NCBI RefSeq assembly: GCF_000009045.1 | Contig: NC_000964.3 | Coordinates: 4,080,001 to 4,112,000, forward strand | Length of the DNA: 32,000 nt | Reading direction: 5' to 3' | Origin: Bacillus subtilis subsp. subtilis str. 168 | GTDB taxonomy: Bacteria > Bacillota > Bacilli > Bacillales > Bacillaceae | Part shown: positions 8,002 through 22,428 of the stretch, one piece after another | Position numbering within the stretch: the first letter of the stretch is position 1 | Layout of the letters: every line of letters starts with the position of its first letter | Notes under the pieces: model-generated | The model's database searches: none | Told to the model about the DNA's origin: nothing | The model's input: only the letters and a program-made list of their open reading frames with translations | Made by a program: the position numbers and the translations under genes

Positions 8002-9387
8002 GTGAAGAAAGACACAAGGAAATATATGATCTACTTTTTCGGCGCTTTAGGGGGACTGCTATATGGTTACGATACAGGTGTTATCTCCGGAGCACTCCTG
8101 TTTATCAATAACGATATTCCTTTAACGACATTGACAGAAGGATTGGTTGTCAGCATGCTGCTCCTTGGCGCGATTTTCGGTTCTGCCTTGAGCGGCACAT
8201 GCTCAGACCGCTGGGGCAGGAGAAAGGTTGTATTTGTCCTTTCCATCATTTTTATTATCGGTGCGCTCGCTTGCGCATTTTCTCAAACAATCGGCATGCT
8301 GATTGCATCTAGGGTGATACTCGGGTTGGCCGTCGGCGGTTCAACGGCACTTGTGCCCGTGTATCTTTCCGAAATGGCACCGACGAAAATTCGCGGGACA
8401 CTCGGCACAATGAACAACTTAATGATTGTCACCGGGATTTTGCTCGCCTATATCGTTAACTACCTGTTCACACCGTTTGAAGCGTGGCGCTGGATGGTCG
8501 GTCTGGCTGCAGTGCCTGCCGTGCTTCTATTAATCGGCATCGCCTTCATGCCGGAATCGCCAAGATGGCTCGTGAAGCGCGGCAGCGAAGAAGAAGCGAG
8601 ACGCATCATGAACATCACTCATGACCCCAAAGACATCGAAATGGAATTGGCAGAGATGAAGCAAGGGGAAGCGGAGAAAAAAGAAACGACACTTGGCGTG
8701 CTGAAAGCCAAGTGGATTCGCCCTATGCTTCTGATTGGCGTCGGCCTTGCCATTTTCCAGCAGGCAGTCGGCATTAACACGGTCATCTACTACGCGCCAA
8801 CCATTTTTACGAAGGCCGGTCTTGGCACATCAGCTTCGGCGCTCGGCACAATGGGAATCGGCATCCTCAACGTCATCATGTGTATCACTGCCATGATCTT
8901 AATTGACCGTGTCGGCCGCAAAAAACTTCTGATCTGGGGAAGTGTCGGCATCACACTGAGCCTTGCTGCTTTATCAGGCGTGCTCCTGACACTGGGGCTT
9001 TCCGCATCAACAGCGTGGATGACAGTAGTCTTTCTCGGTGTCTATATCGTCTTTTACCAGGCGACATGGGGTCCGGTAGTGTGGGTGCTCATGCCTGAGC
9101 TCTTCCCGTCCAAAGCACGCGGAGCCGCGACAGGGTTCACGACTTTGGTGTTATCGGCGGCTAACCTGATCGTGTCGCTTGTCTTCCCGCTGATGCTAAG
9201 CGCGATGGGCATCGCATGGGTCTTTATGGTTTTCTCAGTCATTTGTCTTCTCTCATTTTTCTTCGCGTTCTACATGGTACCGGAAACCAAAGGGAAAAGC
9301 TTGGAGGAAATTGAAGCAAGCCTGAAAAAACGGTTTAAAAAGAAGAAAAGCACCCAAAACCAAGTGCTGAATGAGCGTACATTATAA
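8002..9387 (+). CDS. csbC: CsbC, MFS sugar:H+ symporter-family transporter (general stress)
   Basis: This 461-aa ORF starts at a GTG after GAGGAGGAG. It carries the sugar-porter motifs GRRK, PESPRWL and PETKG, and has 12 predicted TM segments. Confidence 0.94.
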   Translation: MKKDTRKYMIYFFGALGGLLYGYDTGVISGALLFINNDIPLTTLTEGLVVSMLLLGAIFGSALSGTCSDRWGRRKVVFVLSIIFIIGALACAFSQTIGMLIASRVILGLAVGGSTALVPVYLSEMAPTKIRGTLGTMNNLMIVTGILLAYIVNYLFTPFEAWRWMVGLAAVPAVLLLIGIAFMPESPRWLVKRGSEEEARRIMNITHDPKDIEMELAEMKQGEAEKKETTLGVLKAKWIRPMLLIGVGLAIFQQAVGINTVIYYAPTIFTKAGLGTSASALGTMGIGILNVIMCITAMILIDRVGRKKLLIWGSVGITLSLAALSGVLLTLGLSASTAWMTVVFLGVYIVFYQATWGPVVWVLMPELFPSKARGAATGFTTLVLSAANLIVSLVFPLMLSAMGIAWVFMVFSVICLLSFFFAFYMVPETKGKSLEEIEASLKKRFKKKKSTQNQVLNERTL

Positions 9388-15327: not shown

Positions 15328-15358
15328 AAAAGGCGCTTCCTTAGAGGAGCGCCTTTTA
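15328..15358. terminator. Bidirectional terminator between convergent aldX and yxbD
   Basis: The hairpin is AAAGGCGCTTCC-TTAG-AGGAGCGCCTTTT. Confidence 0.75.
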
Positions 15359-15835
15359 TTGTAACTCCTTGACCAAAAGCAATTCATCACGGATAGGTAT
15401 TTTATTATCTGCCAGTAAAGGAATTTCGGGCTTCATCTTTCTGGCCGTCTCGACTGCATTCACAAATAGTCGATCCAACCGGTACCCTCTCTTCTGATAA
15501 AACGCTAATGCATGAATATTATCATTGGTTGTGATCAGTTTTATTTGTTTGATATTTCTCTCTCTGCATGCTTCCTCGGCTTTCTCTAGCAGAGCTGTTC
15601 CGATCCCTTTATTCTCAATGACACTATCCAGCGAAATGATTTCACAGGCATCTTCTTCAAATATGTATGTAATAAGGCCAACAATCTGGTTATCATCGTT
15701 GAGCATTCCATAACCATCTAATTCATCGCAGTTATAAATACCGCTAGAAATAACCATTTGCGGACTGCCCCAGTGTTTTTGAAAAAACGCGGAAACAAGA
15801 TCTTTAGGTACCTGGCATGTCGGAATAATATTCAT
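15356..15835 (-). CDS. yxbD: YxbD, GNAT-family N-acetyltransferase
   Basis: This 159-aa ORF has the GNAT motif A (ENKGIGTALLEKAE) and the C-terminal AFYQKRGY motif, with SD AAAGGAGGAA upstream. No terminator separates it from the upstream yxbC. Confidence 0.9.
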   Translation of the reverse strand: MNIIPTCQVPKDLVSAFFQKHWGSPQMVISSGIYNCDELDGYGMLNDDNQIVGLITYIFEEDACEIISLDSVIENKGIGTALLEKAEEACRERNIKQIKLITTNDNIHALAFYQKRGYRLDRLFVNAVETARKMKPEIPLLADNKIPIRDELLLVKELQ

Positions 15836-15914: not shown

Positions 15915-16907
15915 CTAGAACTTATAACTTGTCAAAAGCTGTCTGAATACCAATTGCGTGGATTGATAAGGATCAAAATCTGAATCCTGAGATTGGAAGA
16001 TTTGCTCTGGGGTCAATGTCTCTGCGTTCTCTGATAACGTTTGAATCAGACTTTCCAAATATCCATTTAACTCTGATTTGGACGATTCATGTAGGGATTG
16101 ATGATTTACAGCGAGTTCTCTAAATCTGTTATCACTGATTAATTTTTTTCGAAGAGCTGCTAGCATCAAGTCAAGCCATGCAGGCTGGCCAAATGTAATA
16201 TTTAAAGCTAACGTTGCTTGATCAGATTTGGTGGAGTGCCATAAACCTCTTGGCAAATACAGCATGGTTCCCGGTGTTAAATTAACGATTTCTGCATCTG
16301 GCAGATCCTCTTTTGGCGGATCTCCTTTCCAATATGACTGTAAATCATCAGGATAGTAAGGAGCCTCTGATAAATCATAGTGCTGCATTGGATTGCTCAC
16401 ATTTTCATTCTTGGCAAGCTTCCATGTTTTCTCACCTTGAATTTGAAAAATCAAGTTGGTGTAGGCGTCAAAATGGGCTTTGAATCCCCCGCCATTTTTC
16501 GCCGCGTAAACAATGGCTTTGGAAGAAGTACCCGCAGGCAGTCTTAATTCCGCTTTGAGTTTTTCTATCCACCTTCTGACTTGGGGAATAAATAGGTCGG
16601 TGAAATCAAACTCTAATGCAGCCCCTTTTTCATACCACTCTAAAGCCTCTGCAGGTGACACAAGAAATCTGTCTGTGATCCCTTCAGATTCTTCAATCAC
16701 AGCATCACCAACGACCATGACTGGATTATTGTAGATAGCCAATACGTTTTCTAGCGTTCTAACCTTTTCAAACCCCGGTATGCTTGTAAATCTCTCCACT
16801 TCTCCTCTGGCTACCAAAGGTTTTACAGGCCAATATTCTTCTAAAAACTCACTCATCGTTACAGGACTGATGATAGACTCCAAAACCGATTCGGTTACAG
16901 CACTCAT
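15915..16907 (-). CDS. yxbC: YxbC, JmjC/cupin-4-type Fe(II)/2-oxoglutarate oxygenase
   Basis: The track ORF is trimmed to the ATG at 16907 (MSAVTESVLES...), after GGGAGGGA. It has the HxD...H facial triad (FKAHFDAY ... LYLPRGLWHST) typical of JmjC/ribosomal-oxygenase-like cupins. The length is 330 aa. Confidence 0.88.
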   Translation of the reverse strand: MSAVTESVLESIISPVTMSEFLEEYWPVKPLVARGEVERFTSIPGFEKVRTLENVLAIYNNPVMVVGDAVIEESEGITDRFLVSPAEALEWYEKGAALEFDFTDLFIPQVRRWIEKLKAELRLPAGTSSKAIVYAAKNGGGFKAHFDAYTNLIFQIQGEKTWKLAKNENVSNPMQHYDLSEAPYYPDDLQSYWKGDPPKEDLPDAEIVNLTPGTMLYLPRGLWHSTKSDQATLALNITFGQPAWLDLMLAALRKKLISDNRFRELAVNHQSLHESSKSELNGYLESLIQTLSENAETLTPEQIFQSQDSDFDPYQSTQLVFRQLLTSYKF

Positions 16908-16971: not shown

Positions 16972-17000
16972 TTGACAGAATTATCAGAGGATTATAATAT
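16972..17000 (+). promoter_or_regulatory. Sigma-A promoter of the peptide/yxbB-asnH operon
   Basis: A perfect TTGACA lies at 16972-16977. The -10 is either TATAAT at 16993-16998 (15-nt spacer) or TAATAT at 16995-17000 (17-nt spacer). The predicted transcription start is about 17005-17008. Confidence 0.6.
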
Positions 17001-17048
17001 TTAGTTGTGCGTGATAGCCTATTTTTTTACAAGGAAGGAGGGAAAAGG

Positions 17049-17117
17049 ATGAAAAAGGCTTATAAGAAACCTCGTCTTTTTGAACTGCGCCGTGCTGTAG
17101 CAGCTGGCGGCCATTAA
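17049..17117 (+). CDS. 22-aa peptide MKKAYKKPRLFELRRAVAAGGH, copy 1 (candidate RiPP/scaffold precursor)
   Basis: The ATG lies 6 nt after GGAGGG and the stop is TAA. It is too short for the ORF track. It is identical at the peptide level to copies 2 and 3, and differs from copy 2 only at wobble positions. Confidence 0.7.
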   Translation: MKKAYKKPRLFELRRAVAAGGH

Positions 17118-17166
17118 TCTCATATAGCATTTGACATCTAGTACTCTATTTTAGGAGGGATGCTCA

Positions 17167-17235
17167 ATGAAAAAAGCTTATAAGAAACCTCGCCTTTTTG
17201 AACTGCGCCGTGCTGTAGCAGCTGGCGGCCATTAA
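17167..17235 (+). CDS. 22-aa peptide MKKAYKKPRLFELRRAVAAGGH, copy 2
   Basis: The ATG lies 8 nt after AGGAGG (17153-17158) and the stop is TAA. The peptide is the same as copy 1. Confidence 0.7.
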   Translation: MKKAYKKPRLFELRRAVAAGGH

Positions 17236-17284
17236 TCTCATATAGCATTTGACATCTAGTACTCTATTTTAGGAGGGATGCTCA

Positions 17285-17353
17285 ATGAAAAAAGCTTATA
17301 AGAAACCTCGCCTTTTTGAATTGCGCCGCGCTGTAGCAGCTGGCGGTCATTAA
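17285..17353 (+). CDS. 22-aa peptide MKKAYKKPRLFELRRAVAAGGH, copy 3
   Basis: The ATG lies 8 nt after AGGAGG (17271-17276) and the stop is TAA. It has three synonymous changes relative to copy 2 (CTG>TTG, CGT>CGC, GGC>GGT). Confidence 0.7.
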   Translation: MKKAYKKPRLFELRRAVAAGGH

Positions 17354-17415
17354 TCTTATCCAAAACGATTAACGTTTGAGGCTATCACGCCAACTTGATA
17401 AGGAGGATGCTGAAG

Positions 17416-18150
17416 ATGATTACGGCTGAAGAATGCAGAACGTACAAAGAATTTGTTGATCTTTACCAATCCTATCTTTACCCCTTGCTTGGCGCCAGAC
17501 TGTCCCGGATGTATTCCCCCAAAAACAAAGTCATTATCGATATGGGCACAGGTCCAGGTTATTTAAGCATTCAGTTGGCTAAAAGAACAAATGCGCACGT
17601 GCATGCTGTCGATATTAACCCGGCCATGCATGAAATCGCTCAAGAAGAAGCTAAAAAAAGCGGAGTAAGCAGCCTGATTTCATTTGATTTGGAAGATGTC
17701 CACCATTTATCTTACGCTGACCAATATGCTGACTTCATCGTCTCCTACTCTTGCCTGCATCATTGGGAAGACGTTGTTAAAGGACTTAAAGAGTGCTATA
17801 GAGTTCTGGCTCCGGGCGGAAAAATTGTCATTTTGGATACATTTAATCCCCAAGGAAGCCATTTAGAGATTATGCGAAAACAAATCAAAGAACCGGAATA
17901 CTTCAGGTTTGTAAGAGAGGCATTTGAAGAAAGTTATTCCTTTGAAGACATTCACCAGTTTGTTCAGGATGCCGGCATTCCCAATTATTCATTAGAAACC
18001 TTTCACTTTTTACCGGAGGATTTTATAGAAAGCTTAGATGAGCTGGAGGATGCTCCCCTGTGGGAACAAAATGATCAAAGTACTGATCATGAAATTGAGT
18101 CTGTCACATGGATGTTAACGATAGAAAAAGAAAAGGAAGGTGCATTGTAA
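17416..18150 (+). CDS. yxbB: YxbB, class I SAM-dependent methyltransferase
   Basis: The track ORF is trimmed to the ATG at 17416 ([13 protein letters not shown]...), 9 nt after AAGGAGG. It has SAM motif I ([12 protein letters not shown]) and the post-I/II motifs ([23 protein letters not shown]). The length is 244 aa. Confidence 0.9.
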
Positions 18151-18419
18151 TGATCAATGAATCAACTGTTTTATCCAAAAATCCAGAAATGCCATCAAGA
18201 AAATATTTGAAAAGCATTATTATAGAGCCGGGCATCACTTTAAATGAAATGGCATCAGATATTTATAACCATATCGACGGCAAGGTCAGCATACATGATA
18301 TTTGCTCAAAAATCGTCAATGAATATGATGTTGATTATCAAACCTGCTTAGAAGATTGTATGGAGCTGTTTGAGTTGCTTATTGATCATGAAGCAATCAA
18401 AGTTAAGCAGGGGGCATGA
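18150..18419 (+). CDS. yxbA: YxbA, PqqD-like small protein (candidate RiPP recognition element)
   Basis: The ATG overlaps the yxbB stop (TAATG) and SD AAGGAAGGTG lies upstream. The 89-aa sequence ...[58 protein letters not shown] follows the PqqD pattern: a beta-strand, then x-W/Y-xxxDG-x-xxxxxI, then helices. Confidence 0.85.
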
Positions 18420-18422
18420 GAA

Positions 18423-18905
18423 TTGGAAAAACAAAAAGTGCTTGCTTTACCAGACGATGTACATGAGCTGAGTACACACCGTTCTAAATCAATCGTAAAT
18501 TACATCATCACTCTGCTTGCCTTTGCCAAAAAACAAGGATTGACTCATCAAGATATTGTAAGCTGGATTCACGAGCAATATGAGGAAAGAGGATATTATG
18601 ATGAGTGGAGACACATTAACAGCCAACAACCAGTTGGATCATTTGTGGAACTCTTTATAAAAGGAAGACGTTTACTTTATGACAAAATTGAATTGTTTGA
18701 AACAGAAGATAAATATGTCGTAAATACCCACACTTGGTATGAAAAAGAACCTAGTGAGGCCTTTTTTTATTTTGAAATTGATCCCGAAGAATTTTCTGCG
18801 TACGCTTCCATTCTCGCAATCGAAAACGCAAAACGTCTCGGAATTAAAATCGATATTGTAAAAGAAACAGATGTAGAGACAGCTTATATCTATAAACATC
18901 AATAA
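18423..18905 (+). CDS. yxnB: YxnB, 160-aa acidic protein with no recognisable family
   Basis: The ORF starts at a TTG 3 nt after the yxbA stop, so the exact start is uncertain. The codon usage is coherent and the gene is tightly packed in the operon. Confidence 0.8.
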   Translation: MEKQKVLALPDDVHELSTHRSKSIVNYIITLLAFAKKQGLTHQDIVSWIHEQYEERGYYDEWRHINSQQPVGSFVELFIKGRRLLYDKIELFETEDKYVVNTHTWYEKEPSEAFFYFEIDPEEFSAYASILAIENAKRLGIKIDIVKETDVETAYIYKHQ

Positions 18906-18925: not shown

Positions 18926-21169
18926 ATGTGCGGGCTCGCGGGTATTATAAATCTGGCTGCTCCCCGTTCTCAGGAATGTACCTTTCATATATTGAAAGGC
19001 ATGGCAGATGCCATCAGCTATAGGGGACCGGATGATGAACAATATCATATTGATTCCAAAGTCGGCTTTGCATTTCGGCGATTGTCCATTCTTGACCTTG
19101 TAAATGGACAGCAGCCCTTTTTAAATGAGGATGGATCAATCGTCGTTATGGTAAATGGAGAAATTTATAACTATAAAGAACTGAAGGCTTCTTTACACAA
19201 TCATATGTTTAAAACGACATCTGATTGTGAAGTAATTGTTCATTTATATGAAGAAAAAGGGATTGGATTTGTAGACGACATCATCGGAATGTTTTCAATA
19301 GCCATTTGGGACAAAAATAAAAACAAAGTATTTTTAGTTCGTGACCGCTTTGGGATTAAACCGCTTTTTTACACAGAGCTAAAACACGAGCTTATATTTG
19401 CCTCTGAAATAAAATCCCTATTTTCTCATCCTCACTGTCCCCGCCAATTTAATTGGAAAGAAGCACTCTCAGACATTTGGCTAAGCGGGGAAGCAGCCAG
19501 TAATCATAAAGAAACCACTTCCTTTTTTGTAAACATCCAAAATCTCGATGCTGGCCATTATCTCGAAATTAATTTGACAACAAATGAACGAAAAACAGCA
19601 AGCTATTGGTCTTTACAGGATATTTTGCTCAGGCAAGGCTATCGTGAGAATCTCCATCCCGATGACCTGATTGAAGGATATAGAGAACTGCTGGCAGATT
19701 CAGTCCATAGATGTTTACAAAGCGACGTTGAAGTCGGGTTGTTTCTTAGCGGTGGCATTGATTCAGCTGCAGTCGCACATTTTGCTGCAGAAAAACAGGA
19801 TCTCCATACGTTTACAGTATTAAGCCAAAGTACATTTACAAATGAAGATGCAAAATATGCCCATTGGCTGGCTAAAGATTTACACCTTCCAAATCATCAG
19901 GTTCTCTATCAATTAGGGAACGATGAGTTATTACAACCAGAGTCATATAAACATTTGTTATGGATCTGTGAAACACCGTTTTGCGGACCGGAACAATTAT
20001 ATAAGTTTCATTTACATAAGTATGCCAAAGCGATAAGGCCAAACCTGAAAGTCATGCTGACCGGCCAGGGCAGCGACGAATTTAACGGCGGTTACAGCAC
20101 GACACTTTCACCAGCCGAGAACCCAAGTTGGGAAGGATTTATTGAATCGGTCAATACGATGGAGATGAACCGGCTGCATCGGCTGCAGGGAAATATCTTT
20201 AGAGTGTGGGAGGAGCATTTTGGACTTTCTCCTATAAACCTTTCTTATTTAAAGAGCAATGATTCCAGCCAAGCAGATCCTTGGCAATCGTATGTCCTGA
20301 CAAAATACCGTGATCTGCAAATGTATAATTGCTGGCATGAAGATCGGATCGCCGCGGCTAATCATATCGAAAACCGTGTACCGTTCTTGGACCATCGGCT
20401 TGTTGAATGGGTTTGCGGAATACCTGATGGACTCCGTAAAGACTTGTTATGGGATAAGTCGGTATTGCGAAAATCATTAACAAATGAGCTGCATACAAGC
20501 TATACCCACCGGCCAAAGGTTCCTTTTTTCTATGGTAAGGACGTGAGATATACACATAAAATGATGTTTCATCTTCTGAAGAAAAACAATTATCAGCTTA
20601 TAGAGGAGGCCTTCTCTCACAGCGATGCCTCCAGCATAATACAGGTTGAACACATTCATGCCATCATGACATATTTGGAGGATGATCCTGAGTTTACAAA
20701 TTTTGAATTTTTATTAAGACTGGTGAACATGGGACTTTTATCAAAAATGACTAAAGAAACCCCTTCTGTTCAATTAGACATAACCAGCCATTTAGAATCG
20801 ATAACAATAAAAGACTGGCACTCACAGGAAGGTGATATTGCCAGTCGTTTAAATATCTCAGCCAATAAGTGTGAAGGACAAGATATTTTGGCGCTAAACC
20901 CTGGCGTCACTCTGTTAAGGCCGGAAAGCGATAGTGAGCATTGCATCTACATTGCGGAAGAAGGATTTATTCAGTTTATTGTTTCGGAGGAAGACGTCGG
21001 AGCTTGGCTGCATATTCTCTGCGATATTAATGGAAAAGACACACTTCATACGATTTTAGACAGACATGGTGTCAGCCTTGAAGAAGTGGCCAAATATATT
21101 CAAGAAGCCATCGAACACAATATCATTTTGATCAAACAAAAAAATCTGCCAGAAGGAGCATATAGATGA
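18926..21169 (+). CDS. asnH: AsnH, asparagine synthetase (glutamine-hydrolysing)-type amidotransferase with a C-terminal extension of about 120 aa
   Basis: The track ORF is trimmed to the ATG at 18926, giving MCGLAG with the Ntn Cys2 nucleophile, after GGGAGGGAG. The PP-loop SGGIDS is at 19748-19765. The length is 747 aa, against about 615-630 aa for the housekeeping AsnB/AsnO. Confidence 0.94.
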   Translation: MCGLAGIINLAAPRSQECTFHILKGMADAISYRGPDDEQYHIDSKVGFAFRRLSILDLVNGQQPFLNEDGSIVVMVNGEIYNYKELKASLHNHMFKTTSDCEVIVHLYEEKGIGFVDDIIGMFSIAIWDKNKNKVFLVRDRFGIKPLFYTELKHELIFASEIKSLFSHPHCPRQFNWKEALSDIWLSGEAASNHKETTSFFVNIQNLDAGHYLEINLTTNERKTASYWSLQDILLRQGYRENLHPDDLIEGYRELLADSVHRCLQSDVEVGLFLSGGIDSAAVAHFAAEKQDLHTFTVLSQSTFTNEDAKYAHWLAKDLHLPNHQVLYQLGNDELLQPESYKHLLWICETPFCGPEQLYKFHLHKYAKAIRPNLKVMLTGQGSDEFNGGYSTTLSPAENPSWEGFIESVNTMEMNRLHRLQGNIFRVWEEHFGLSPINLSYLKSNDSSQADPWQSYVLTKYRDLQMYNCWHEDRIAAANHIENRVPFLDHRLVEWVCGIPDGLRKDLLWDKSVLRKSLTNELHTSYTHRPKVPFFYGKDVRYTHKMMFHLLKKNNYQLIEEAFSHSDASSIIQVEHIHAIMTYLEDDPEFTNFEFLLRLVNMGLLSKMTKETPSVQLDITSHLESITIKDWHSQEGDIASRLNISANKCEGQDILALNPGVTLLRPESDSEHCIYIAEEGFIQFIVSEEDVGAWLHILCDINGKDTLHTILDRHGVSLEEVAKYIQEAIEHNIILIKQKNLPEGAYR

Positions 21170-22365
21170 GCATCTTTTATTCGTTTTCCGCACTTAGGGG
21201 ATTAGCAATGGGGATTTTTTCGCCTATTTGGATTCTTTATCTGATATCTAAAGATTATGATTTCCTTCAGATTGGATTAATGGGAGCGGTACTTGAAATT
21301 GCTAAGCTTATATTTGAAGTTCCTTCCGGCGTTTTTGCTGATCGTTATGGAATTAAAATTTCAATTGCCAGTTCATTCTTTTTCTCCATCCTTACATGGG
21401 CCTTCTTCCCTTTTATCGATTCAGCTGCTATTTGCATACTGGCTATGATCATATGGGCTTTATCAGATTCCTTAATTTCCGGTTCTTTTGAAACTTGGAT
21501 GAGCCGTGTCGCAGGGGAAGATCGATTCGGCAAAGAAATGATGAAAAACACACAATTGCTAATCACTTTTTTAATTATTGGAAGTATTGCCAGCGGGTAT
21601 TTGTATTCATTAAATATCTATTTTCCTTTCCTGCTCGTTATGGTGATCTACTTATTACTATTTATTTGGATGTCTGTATTTATTAAAGTCCCTTCTGTTT
21701 CCGAAACAAATCATGGGGATCAGAACCAACATGATTCGATAAAGATTATCAAAGAAAGTTTAAAAATTATCTTTAACAAAAAAAGGGTTCTTTTAATCGT
21801 CATAGCCGGTTTCTTTACAGCCACAGCCTATGACACAATTTCCCGTTACTGGCAGCCTTTTTTGAGTGATTTAGGCTTTTCAGAAAAGTCACTGGGATAT
21901 ATTTTTGCCCTAGGAGGGTTTACCGCTCTCGTTCTTTTGACATTAACCATCAGGTTCGAAAAGAAGATCGAAAAAAATCCATATCTCGCTTTAACCTCAT
22001 TGGATTCCATGGGCATGGTCATGACTTTTCTATTGTCTAGAGCATTCAGGCCGCTGGGCATTCCATGTACAGCGTTTTTGCTTGCAATTGAAGATATTCA
22101 TCATCCGATCGTAACAAGTTACTTAAATAAGTTTTTCCCCGATTCATACAAGAACACACTTTTCTCGTTAAACTCAGGGGTAGGAGCAATTGGAGAAATT
22201 CTTTCCGGTGTCATTTTCGGCATCATTTCCGCAGCCTTTGGGCTCTCTGCCATGTTTGTTGTTGTAGCTGTATTTCTATTAATCCCTATTATCCTTTATA
22301 CGATAGTGCCTAAGATTAAAGACAATGATATGAAAGTTCAGATTGAAAAATCCCAGCAAGTGTAA
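21166..22365 (+). CDS. yxaM: YxaM, MFS transporter (candidate exporter)
   Basis: This 399-aa ORF has its ATG overlapping the asnH stop (ATGA). It has about 12 hydrophobic segments, with a central loop around aa 185-200. Confidence 0.9.
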   Translation: MSIFYSFSALRGLAMGIFSPIWILYLISKDYDFLQIGLMGAVLEIAKLIFEVPSGVFADRYGIKISIASSFFFSILTWAFFPFIDSAAICILAMIIWALSDSLISGSFETWMSRVAGEDRFGKEMMKNTQLLITFLIIGSIASGYLYSLNIYFPFLLVMVIYLLLFIWMSVFIKVPSVSETNHGDQNQHDSIKIIKESLKIIFNKKRVLLIVIAGFFTATAYDTISRYWQPFLSDLGFSEKSLGYIFALGGFTALVLLTLTIRFEKKIEKNPYLALTSLDSMGMVMTFLLSRAFRPLGIPCTAFLLAIEDIHHPIVTSYLNKFFPDSYKNTLFSLNSGVGAIGEILSGVIFGIISAAFGLSAMFVVVAVFLLIPIILYTIVPKIKDNDMKVQIEKSQQV

Positions 22366-22382: not shown

Positions 22383-22413
22383 AAGAAGACCTTCTTATTA
22401 AAAGAAGGTCTTC
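22383..22413. terminator. Hairpin between convergent yxaM and yxaL
   Basis: A perfect 13-bp stem, AGAAGACCTTCTT-ATTAA-AAGAAGGTCTTCT. The T-tracts are weak on both sides. Confidence 0.6.
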
Positions 22414-22428
22414 TGCTATTCTATTCAG

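Follow-up and report, generated by a model that had tools for sequence, protein, structure and literature searches.

The stretch analysed here (the window) comprises 32,000 nucleotides of Bacillus subtilis subsp. subtilis str. 168 (NC_000964.3, positions 4,080,001 to 4,112,000) and includes the asnH operon, whose 5' region holds a 118-nt direct repeat carrying three small open reading frames (ORFs) that all encode the same peptide, MKKAYKKPRLFELRRAVAAGGH. These putative precursor, or scaffold, peptide genes lie on the plus strand at 17049..17117, 17167..17235 and 17285..17353, and each consists of an ATG, 21 further codons and a TAA, as given by direct reading and by the ORF list, in which copy 1 forms the 3' part of a GTG ORF (17007-17117). 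A sigma-A-type promoter (TTGACA plus a -10 hexamer, 10/12 matches; 16972..17000, plus strand) is found 5' of the first peptide ORF and an intrinsic terminator, a 13-bp stem followed by a T-rich tail, closes the operon (22384..22414, plus strand).

Downstream of the array, on the same strand, are encoded a class I S-adenosylmethionine (SAM)-dependent methyltransferase of the UbiE/Methyltransf_11 type, YxbB (17416..18150; Pfam E 8e-25), a stand-alone PqqD-type RRE (RiPP recognition element), YxbA (18150..18419; Pfam PqqD E 1e-10), the family-specific protein YxnB, which has no Pfam or NCBIfam match (18423..18905), AsnH, an amidotransferase that resembles asparagine synthetase (AS-like) and has a C-terminal PqqD-like domain (18926..21169; Pfam GATase_7 and Asn_synthase), and the predicted major facilitator superfamily (MFS) exporter YxaM (21166..22365; Pfam MFS_1). 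Two further genes are transcribed divergently from the peptide/enzyme operon, yxbC for a JmjC/cupin Fe(II)/2-oxoglutarate oxygenase (15915..16907, minus strand; Pfam JmjC_2 and Cupin_8) and yxbD for a GNAT N-acetyltransferase (15356..15835, minus strand; Pfam Acetyltransf_1 E 1e-14). According to the literature, the asnH operon is controlled by CodY, is induced at the transition to stationary phase and changes its expression in mutants of transfer-messenger RNA (tmRNA).

Each of the three peptide ORFs is preceded by a strong Shine-Dalgarno sequence (GGAGG, 7-9 nt 5' of the ATG), and the codon differences between copies, summed over pairs, amount to 10 synonymous and 0 non-synonymous changes. 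Given that the changes between copies are synonymous only, that every copy has its own Shine-Dalgarno sequence and that the same peptide family occurs in tandem before the same genes in other genera, sequence comparison indicates that the ORFs are real coding sequences under purifying selection and not chance occurrences. Minus-strand ORFs of 35-48 codons (16984-17130, 17138-17248 and 17256-17363) overlap each peptide gene, a layout repeated in a related metagenomic locus (L001), and are most simply explained as a by-product of the repeat. Literature searches with the peptide sequence and the yxb gene names recovered no paper treating the ORFs of the asnH operon as peptides; in the literature citing Morinaga et al. 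2010, the repeat is described as a '5'-proximal long sequence triplication' with a stabilising effect on the RNA of the operon. A search with a degenerate DNA pattern for KKPRLFELRRAV gave 0 matches in species-representative genomes, in which the source region may be masked.

A YxnB profile recovered about 50 clusters at 50% identity, and related loci were identified with a 12-sequence subset of a 43-sequence YxnB alignment. The conserved gene set comprises YxbC, YxbD, YxbB, YxbA, YxnB and AsnH, along with YxaM, and tandem peptide ORFs preceding the same genes occur in Anoxybacillus mongoliensis, Alicyclobacillus suci, Bacillus xiamenensis, Bacillus sp. 28A-2 and Paenibacillus wenxiniae, as well as in three metagenomic lineages, including a high-GC one. 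The peptides share the motif MKKxYKxPR...GGH, measure 21-23 residues and are encoded in 1-5 copies per locus in relatives from at least seven other lineages. A metagenomic relative (L001/L002) encodes MKKAYKKPRLFELRRAVVAGGH three times, next to enzymes that are only 58-68% identical to those of the window; the L001 copies differ among themselves by 18 synonymous and 0 non-synonymous changes, and the window differs from L001 by 10 and 1, respectively. Other members of the family are MKKEYKKPRAFELRRAVIAGGH (2 copies in L003), MKKVYKAPRIVEIERAAVVGGH (1 copy in L004), MKKVYKTPRLVEIRNVVVAGGH and close variants (5 copies in the B. xiamenensis locus, L005), MKKVYKKPRALELRRMTIDGGH (5 copies in L007) and the single-copy peptides MKTYKPPRVFAMRRSILAGGH, MEAKKYVAPKMYRLRRAYAAGGH and MKRLYKKPKAVAVGLTVAAGAH (in L019, L021 and L020, respectively). 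Peptide identity exceeds that of every enzyme encoded alongside (95% against 58-68%, 86% against 53-64% and 68% against 24-58%). The five B. xiamenensis copies (8449-8977) are non-identical, with T7N, K6R and E12D variants and 12 non-synonymous pair differences, every one of them outside the Y, P and GGH positions. The Bacillus thuringiensis locus (L009) starts at the methyltransferase gene, the contig end cutting off any upstream peptide ORFs, and inspection of a Brevibacillus locus with an AsnH homologue (L010) revealed no clear precursor.

Across the 10 distinct precursors from YxnB-linked loci, the terminal His is kept in all (10/10), preceded by Gly-Gly in nine and by Gly-Ala in one (GAH, in L020), and the Y-x-x-P motif is invariant, taking the form Y5-K-K-P8 in all three copies of the window. 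Positions 16-19 are free to vary (AVAA, AVVA, AVIA, AAVV, VVVA, MTID, SILA). Glu12 is not conserved either, being replaced by Ala, Arg or Val in L019, L021 and L020, and the L019 peptide lacks Asp and Glu altogether. Genes for a methyltransferase, a PqqD protein, a fusion of YxnB with a GNAT and an AsnH-like protein starting MCGFAG are nevertheless present in the L019 locus. Because Glu12 is not conserved, the alpha-carboxylate of the terminal His is the sole carboxylate common to all the precursors, and this is the strongest argument obtainable from sequence as to where an adenylating AS-like enzyme must act. Glu12 itself, considered as a target of AsnH, was discarded on the basis of its replacement in L019, L020 and L021 and of the absence of any acidic residue from the L019 peptide.

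An earlier, sequence-only reading of the window had described a peptide without Cys, Ser, Thr or Asp, with Glu12 as its sole acidic side chain, with 7 K/R among residues 1-15 and with a C-terminal Gly-Gly-His; direct reading bears this out, and adds a net charge of about +6 and a helix-prone middle. Its suggestion that the basic N-terminus is an RRE-binding leader agrees with the invariance of Y5-x-x-P8, a motif of FzmZ-type peptides (PMC13622209). The chemistry it placed at the last residue is largely upheld by the comparison of sequences, given the invariance of His22 in the 10 precursors, the loss of Glu12 from several of them and the retention of an AsnH-like gene in the locus whose peptide has no acidic residue.

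The glutaminase residues of AsnH (Cys2, R52, N77-G78-E79 and D100) and its SGGIDS pyrophosphate loop are invariant in 4/4 aligned orthologues, while its scores against lasso-cyclase models are 190 bits for NF033535 (cut-off 525) and 47 for NF033561 (cut-off 300). Since the glutaminase and adenylation motifs are kept and the lasso models fall far below their cut-offs, AsnH is, on sequence, an amidotransferase and not a lasso cyclase. Comparison by hhalign of its additional C-terminal domain of about 95 residues with discrete PqqD proteins gave a probability of 53% with 4 sequences and of 91.6% (E 8e-7) with 117 homologues. No RRE was called in this part of AsnH by Pfam or NCBIfam, which returned weak winged-helix-like matches only (DnaD_N, FecI); an AsnH homologue, P0170, has a precomputed PF05402 match. 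As for YxbA, a profile search matched it to PqqD and to the lasso-pathway chaperones TbiB1 and TfuB1, and its score against the NCBIfam model lasso_PqqD_Bac was 30 bits (E 4e-7; cut-off 80).

A precedent for such a set of proteins has been newly published. In the biosynthesis of the antifungal fosfazinomycin, the AS-like enzyme FzmA, to whose C-terminus an RRE is fused, transfers hydrazine in vitro to the C-terminal Arg carboxylate of FzmZ, and hydroxylamine or Gln-derived ammonia can also be used (Cha et al., bioRxiv 2026-09-24, PMC13622209). The ribosomal peptide FzmZ, 22 residues long and with YxxP in its N-terminal part, had been missed by annotation, and YxxP is reported for FzmZ-type peptides and for RRE engagement (PMC13622209). 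A SAM methyltransferase acts after FzmA and general aminopeptidases release the product, the handle being discarded; a discrete RRE and an MFS gene lie nearby (PMC13622209). In the sequence similarity network, the neighbourhoods of the cluster that contains FzmA (cluster 58) encode discrete RREs, nucleotidyltransferases, AurF-like oxygenases, MFS proteins and 21/22-mer YxxP peptides, with a nucleotidyltransferase or AurF-like partner in about 60% of the cluster (PMC13622209).

The system of the window shares with FzmA/FzmZ an AS-like enzyme of the Gln-amidotransferase type, about 740 residues long and ending in an RRE, a PqqD RRE encoded on its own, a SAM methyltransferase, an MFS gene, the lack of a dedicated protease, and a 21/22-residue peptide starting MKK or MRK that contains YxxP, whose last residue is the important one and whose genes escaped annotation on account of their shortness. 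It differs in that the terminal residue is a His after Gly-Gly, whereas FzmZ ends in Val-Arg; in that phosphonate, hydrazine, nucleotidyltransferase, kinase and AurF genes are lacking (machinery for hydrazine or hydroxylamine was found in none of the Bacillales loci), their place being taken by a JmjC oxygenase, by a GNAT and by YxnB, which is specific to the family; and in that the peptide gene occurs in 1-5 tandem copies in Bacillales instead of Actinobacteria. What is new with respect to the FzmA/FzmZ logic is the terminal residue, the tailoring enzymes, the tandem amplification and the host clade.

Full-length homologues from Streptomyces and Kitasatospora are 39-41% identical to AsnH over 99-100% of its length, and their loci contain PqqD, nucleotidyltransferase, AurF, MFS or PepM genes, matching the published description of cluster 58; Rce1-like genes are also among the neighbours, and one of the loci (L008) has PepM, phosphonopyruvate (thiamine pyrophosphate) decarboxylase and radical-SAM genes. 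Three of these loci contain unannotated 22-mers, MKKYIKPQVKKVSFGSVLSNVA (L008, 7853-7921), MKKYIKPSAKKVGFGTVLSVSP (L011, 9782-9850) and MRKYTKPVAKKVVFGTVLTNVC (L012, 9788-9856), of the form MKKYxKP... and with A, P or C as last residue, which suggests further products made on the same carrier. A common handle with a variable last residue (A, P and C in these loci, R in FzmZ and H in the window) is what would be expected of a carrier on which the identity of the product is set by the final residue.

Other AS-like enzymes are known to work at peptide C-termini. PesC, from Peribacillus, uses ATP and Gln to convert a peptide C-terminal carboxylate into an amide and then into a nitrile in the biosynthesis of nitrilobacillins (Cha et al., bioRxiv 2026, PMC13060819); TsrC and ScdTA are C-terminal amidases, and some 300 uncharacterised RiPP-associated AS-like enzymes have been counted (PMC13060819). 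The published BLAST search with PesC recovered pes orthologues only (PMC13060819), and B. subtilis AsnH is mentioned neither in the main texts of PMC13622209 and PMC13060819 nor in one nitrilobacillin supplementary file. As proposed for AsnH, PesC, an AS-like enzyme of Bacillus relatives, acts on the C-terminus of a ribosomal peptide, in its case once a prior hydroxylation by an iron enzyme has gated the reaction. However, the nitrilotide systems employ an MNIO with a partner protein, an oxygenase of the HExxH type and peptidases of the M16 family on precursors of about 47 residues ending in R(V/T)DN, and none of these genes, nor an R(V/T)DN end, was found at the yxb/asnH locus. TsrC (thiostrepton) and ScdTA likewise make a peptide C-terminal amide, but they tailor large thiopeptide or other cores produced by YcaO and related enzymes, while the yxb/asnH locus has neither azole/pyridine machinery nor the esterase needed for a de-esterification route. 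In thiostrepton, a methyl ester reportedly precedes the amidation, a sequence of steps attributed to Liao and Liu (2011).

YxbB is related to solved structures of generic N- and O-methyltransferases, and a methyltransferase is conserved in every related locus. YxbC is 100% identical to the protein in PDB entries 1VRB and 7ZCC, titled 'putative asparaginyl hydroxylase' and 'uncharacterized protein YxbC', respectively, and the adjacent 22-mer is an obvious candidate for its substrate. Among other solved structures, it comes closest to MINA53 and NO66, both histidyl hydroxylases (E 1e-7 to 1e-6), with YcfD, an arginyl hydroxylase, further off (E 0.01), and the JmjC gene adjoins the peptide array in L001-L005 and L007. 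YxbC thus shares the JmjC_2 type with the ribosomal oxygenases MINA53, NO66 and YcfD, the closest of which hydroxylate His in ribosomal proteins at Gly-rich target sites, although the similarity to MINA53 and NO66 is low (E of about 1e-7). YxbC is also the top structural neighbour of CzlI, a JmjC enzyme that hydroxylates a RiPP precursor, with the difference that CzlI makes Tyr from Phe and not a beta-hydroxy residue.

In B. subtilis, yxnB and yxbD lie on opposite strands and about 2.6 kb apart. A YxbD-homologous GNAT is, however, fused to the C-terminus of YxnB in P0006-P0008, P0012, P0019, P0026, P0027, P0041 and P0042, with fusion genes at 2655-3677 of L004 and 10004-10993 of L005, and is encoded separately in L007 and L009. 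Because YxnB is fused to a YxbD-type GNAT in many relatives, yxbD, and hence the divergent yxbCD pair, can be assigned to the system, and YxnB and YxbD are predicted to work together. The GNAT YxbD is most similar to N-alpha-acetyltransferases (RimI, the best NCBIfam match) and to resistance acetyltransferases, all below the cut-offs. YxnB has near-invariant residues at W48, G57, G81, R82, G140 and E152, with no Cys or His among them, and its alignment-based AlphaFold2 model reaches a pLDDT (predicted local distance difference test) of 95 (49 from the single sequence); Foldseek searches of the PDB with this model returned no convincing match, the top hits being designed proteins with TM scores below 0.5. 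A 2025 preprint places YxnB among the candidates of the RNA-binding proteome of sporulating cells.

Two of the related loci look like decayed versions of the cluster. In Bacillus sp. 28A-2 (L006, 8909-11567) a single peptide gene remains, together with those for the methyltransferase, for PqqD and for YxnB-GNAT, while the JmjC and AsnH genes are lost and the MFS gene is truncated, and in L020 (6932-9619) the GAH-ended peptide, the methyltransferase, YxnB-GNAT and a short MFS gene are kept. Retention of YxnB-GNAT after the loss of AsnH would fit a role in immunity.

Considered together, these data favour the interpretation that the three ORFs encode an FzmZ-like scaffold peptide, bound by RREs through its handle, on whose Gly-Gly-His end AsnH and the tailoring enzymes act. 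We assign a probability of roughly 0.7 to this reading. In the scheme that we infer, residues 1-19 would constitute the handle, the YxxP(R) of which would be bound by YxbA and by the C-terminal domain of AsnH so as to deliver the invariant Gly-Gly-His end to the enzymes. AsnH would adenylate the alpha-carboxylate of His22 and transfer to it the nitrogen released in its own glutaminase site; ammonia from Gln is the most likely donor, which would yield a C-terminal histidine amide, with a nitrile as a less likely further step. YxbC would hydroxylate the Gly-Gly-His end or a position close to it, perhaps the beta-carbon of the His in the manner of MINA53 and NO66, and YxbB would methylate at or near the same end. 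The YxnB and YxbD (GNAT) module may acetylate an amine in this region, either in maturation or in self-protection. The product, presumably exported by YxaM, would be either a small His-derived fragment that general peptidases set free or the modified peptide as a whole.

This scheme modifies the picture drawn by the sequence-only reading in several respects. Its comparison of AsnH with enzymes acting on peptide C-terminal carboxylates holds, the resemblance being to FzmA, PesC, TsrC and ScdTA, and so does its exclusion of a lasso peptide for want of a B2 protease, as YxnB has no Pfam or NCBIfam match and no conserved Cys or His. The statement that the peptide fits no established class is outdated by the publication of FzmA/FzmZ (PMC13622209). 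The double-glycine junction that it proposed is not sustained, since a C39-type peptidase is lacking and the Gly-Gly would occupy positions -2/-1 of a one-residue 'core'. In the set of enzymes, YxbD as a member of the system and the RRE fused to AsnH had been overlooked. A pearlin (PEARL) scaffold was also considered and rejected, the Pfam scan having found no LanB-type domain in any protein of the locus.

Several observations weigh against the scaffold interpretation. The nucleotidyltransferase and AurF genes typical of the cluster of FzmA are absent from the window and from all the Bacillales loci, and the homology to FzmA is indirect, the likeness resting on the published description of cluster 58 and on the actinobacterial homologues and not on the sequence of FzmA. 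Of the C-terminal domain of AsnH, only the helical half is aligned with PqqD by hhalign. In addition, AsnH scores 361 bits against TIGR01536, the model for genuine asparagine synthase (cut-off 267), and a plasmid-borne asnH is said to have complemented an asparagine auxotroph of Escherichia coli, a result attributed to Yoshida et al. in 1999, so that AsnH can apparently amidate free aspartate. Set against this, AsnH has an additional RRE-like domain and its gene belongs to a RiPP-type operon. The triplication, moreover, already has an explanation as an RNA-stabilising 5' element in the literature citing Morinaga et al. 2010. Finally, the peptide is conserved along its whole length, beyond the apparent need of RRE binding, and the entire modified 22-mer could therefore be the product.

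This last point leads to an alternative that retains the same enzymology but takes the whole, or nearly the whole, 22-mer as a mature cationic peptide, C-terminally amidated and tailored and exported intact. Full-length conservation above that of any enzyme, the net charge of about +6 with a helix-prone middle, and the failure of domain scans and locus gene lists to reveal a dedicated protease gene in any related locus are all in line with it. The exporter, on the other hand, is an MFS pump (an MFS gene is also present in L003, L005, L007 and L009), and such pumps usually move small molecules. Positions 16-19 vary freely, and the MKK-Y-x-K-P handle and the length of 21-23 residues are common to actinobacterial peptides with other C-termini and other chemistry, which argues against an intact product. 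Housekeeping aminopeptidases remove the handle in the fosfazinomycin pathway (PMC13622209). We regard an intact 22-mer product as rather unlikely.

A second alternative is that the triplication is an RNA element only, with ORFs that merely load ribosomes, and that AsnH is an ordinary third asparagine synthetase. The array is indeed bracketed by a long-range RNA helix, the 5' arm of which (17003..17020, plus strand) was identified as an inverted repeat and in the minimum-free-energy fold; its 3' arm (17379..17395, plus strand) contains a 12-nt perfect inverted repeat (17379-17390) of the 5' arm, and the two pair in that fold to close off the array with a helix of about 17 bp. An inverted repeat surrounds the whole peptide array in 5/6 loci, whether the array holds 1, 2, 3 or 5 copies (L001, 3304-3316/3667-3679; L003, 8654-8668/8927-8941; L004, 1499-1511/1638-1650; L005, 8401-8414/8993-9006), and the remaining locus, L007, has a local hairpin (8912-8940) instead. 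The sequence of the bracket differs from species to species, in what looks like covariation, and an Rfam scan of the operon leader found no known RNA family. It is possible that this helix physically underlies the RNA stabiliser published as 'LST', or that the transcript is processed there to split the peptide mRNA from the enzyme mRNA. This conserved helix, the stabilisation ascribed to the triplication in the literature citing Morinaga et al. 2010, the passing of TIGR01536 by AsnH, and the CodY control and transition-phase induction of the operon would all suit an RNA element, as would the reported complementation of the E. coli auxotroph by asnH. What argues against it is that the amino-acid sequence is conserved under synonymous drift of the codons, whereas the spacers and the copy number (1-5) vary; that the ORFs are always accompanied by two peptide-binding domains of the PqqD type; and that AsnH has homologues in FzmA-type loci, where 22-mers of the same kind are encoded. 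Besides, stabilising the RNA and coding for a peptide do not exclude each other. An RNA element to the exclusion of a peptide function is thus highly improbable.

The small ORFs might also be regulatory leader peptides that govern the downstream genes by attenuation or ribosome stalling, as their position within the 5' leader of the operon and the altered expression in tmRNA mutants could indicate; the expression of asnH is, in addition, partly repressed by asparagine. Yet runs of a regulatory codon are lacking, as is any terminator/antiterminator pair in the stretch from the ORFs to yxbB, and attenuation would explain neither the tandem identical copies nor the invariant YxxP...GGH nor the linkage of the ORFs to RRE proteins, leaving this possibility very remote.

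Lasso-peptide systems share with this locus a PqqD-type RRE (hence the profile match of YxbA to TbiB1 and TfuB1) and a YxxP leader motif, and in the lasso consensus YxxPxLx3Gx5Tx the leader Tyr precedes core residue 1 by 17 residues, the same distance that separates Tyr5 from His22. A cryptic lasso cluster with PqqD as B1, YxnB as B2 and AsnH as cyclase, for which the A-B1-B2-C-transporter-like gene order, the lasso-type YxxP and the weak matches to lasso PqqD and cyclase models could be adduced, is nevertheless scarcely credible, considering that these models score far below their cut-offs (30 against 80 bits and 190 against 525), that AsnH keeps its catalytic Cys2 glutaminase site, that YxnB, without a transglutaminase match or conserved Cys/His, has a different predicted fold and leaves the locus with no B2 protease, that the acidic ring acceptor is absent from L019, L020 and L021, where E12 is replaced and no macrolactam is possible, and that Glu12 as acceptor would leave a leader of just 3-5 residues.

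If the scaffold interpretation is correct, an operon of y-genes and the unexplained structure of YxbC would acquire a function in the best-studied Gram-positive model, and the known triplication in the 5' untranslated region would become three precursor genes. We tentatively extend this, at somewhat less than even odds, to the proposal that B. subtilis 168, scattered Bacillales and some high-GC relatives make a previously unseen natural product from the C-terminal His of the scaffold by means of a new combination of enzymes that includes YxnB and a GNAT, the 'RNA-stabilising triplication' being a triple precursor gene. On this proposal, the compound could be a released antimetabolite in the form of a histidine amide (or nitrile) that is hydroxylated, methylated or both, or alternatively a Gly-Gly-His-amide fragment, Gly-Gly-His being the textbook Cu(II)/Ni(II)-binding ATCUN sequence. 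Building on the C-terminal carboxylate of a 22-mer carrier would then extend from actinobacterial phosphonates to Firmicutes, in a version with a new terminal His, a new JmjC/methyltransferase/GNAT-YxnB set and a product that may be bioactive or bind metals. The amidation of peptide C-termini by AS-like enzymes is also of biocatalytic interest, and the genetics of B. subtilis and the existing crystal structures of YxbC make the system directly testable.

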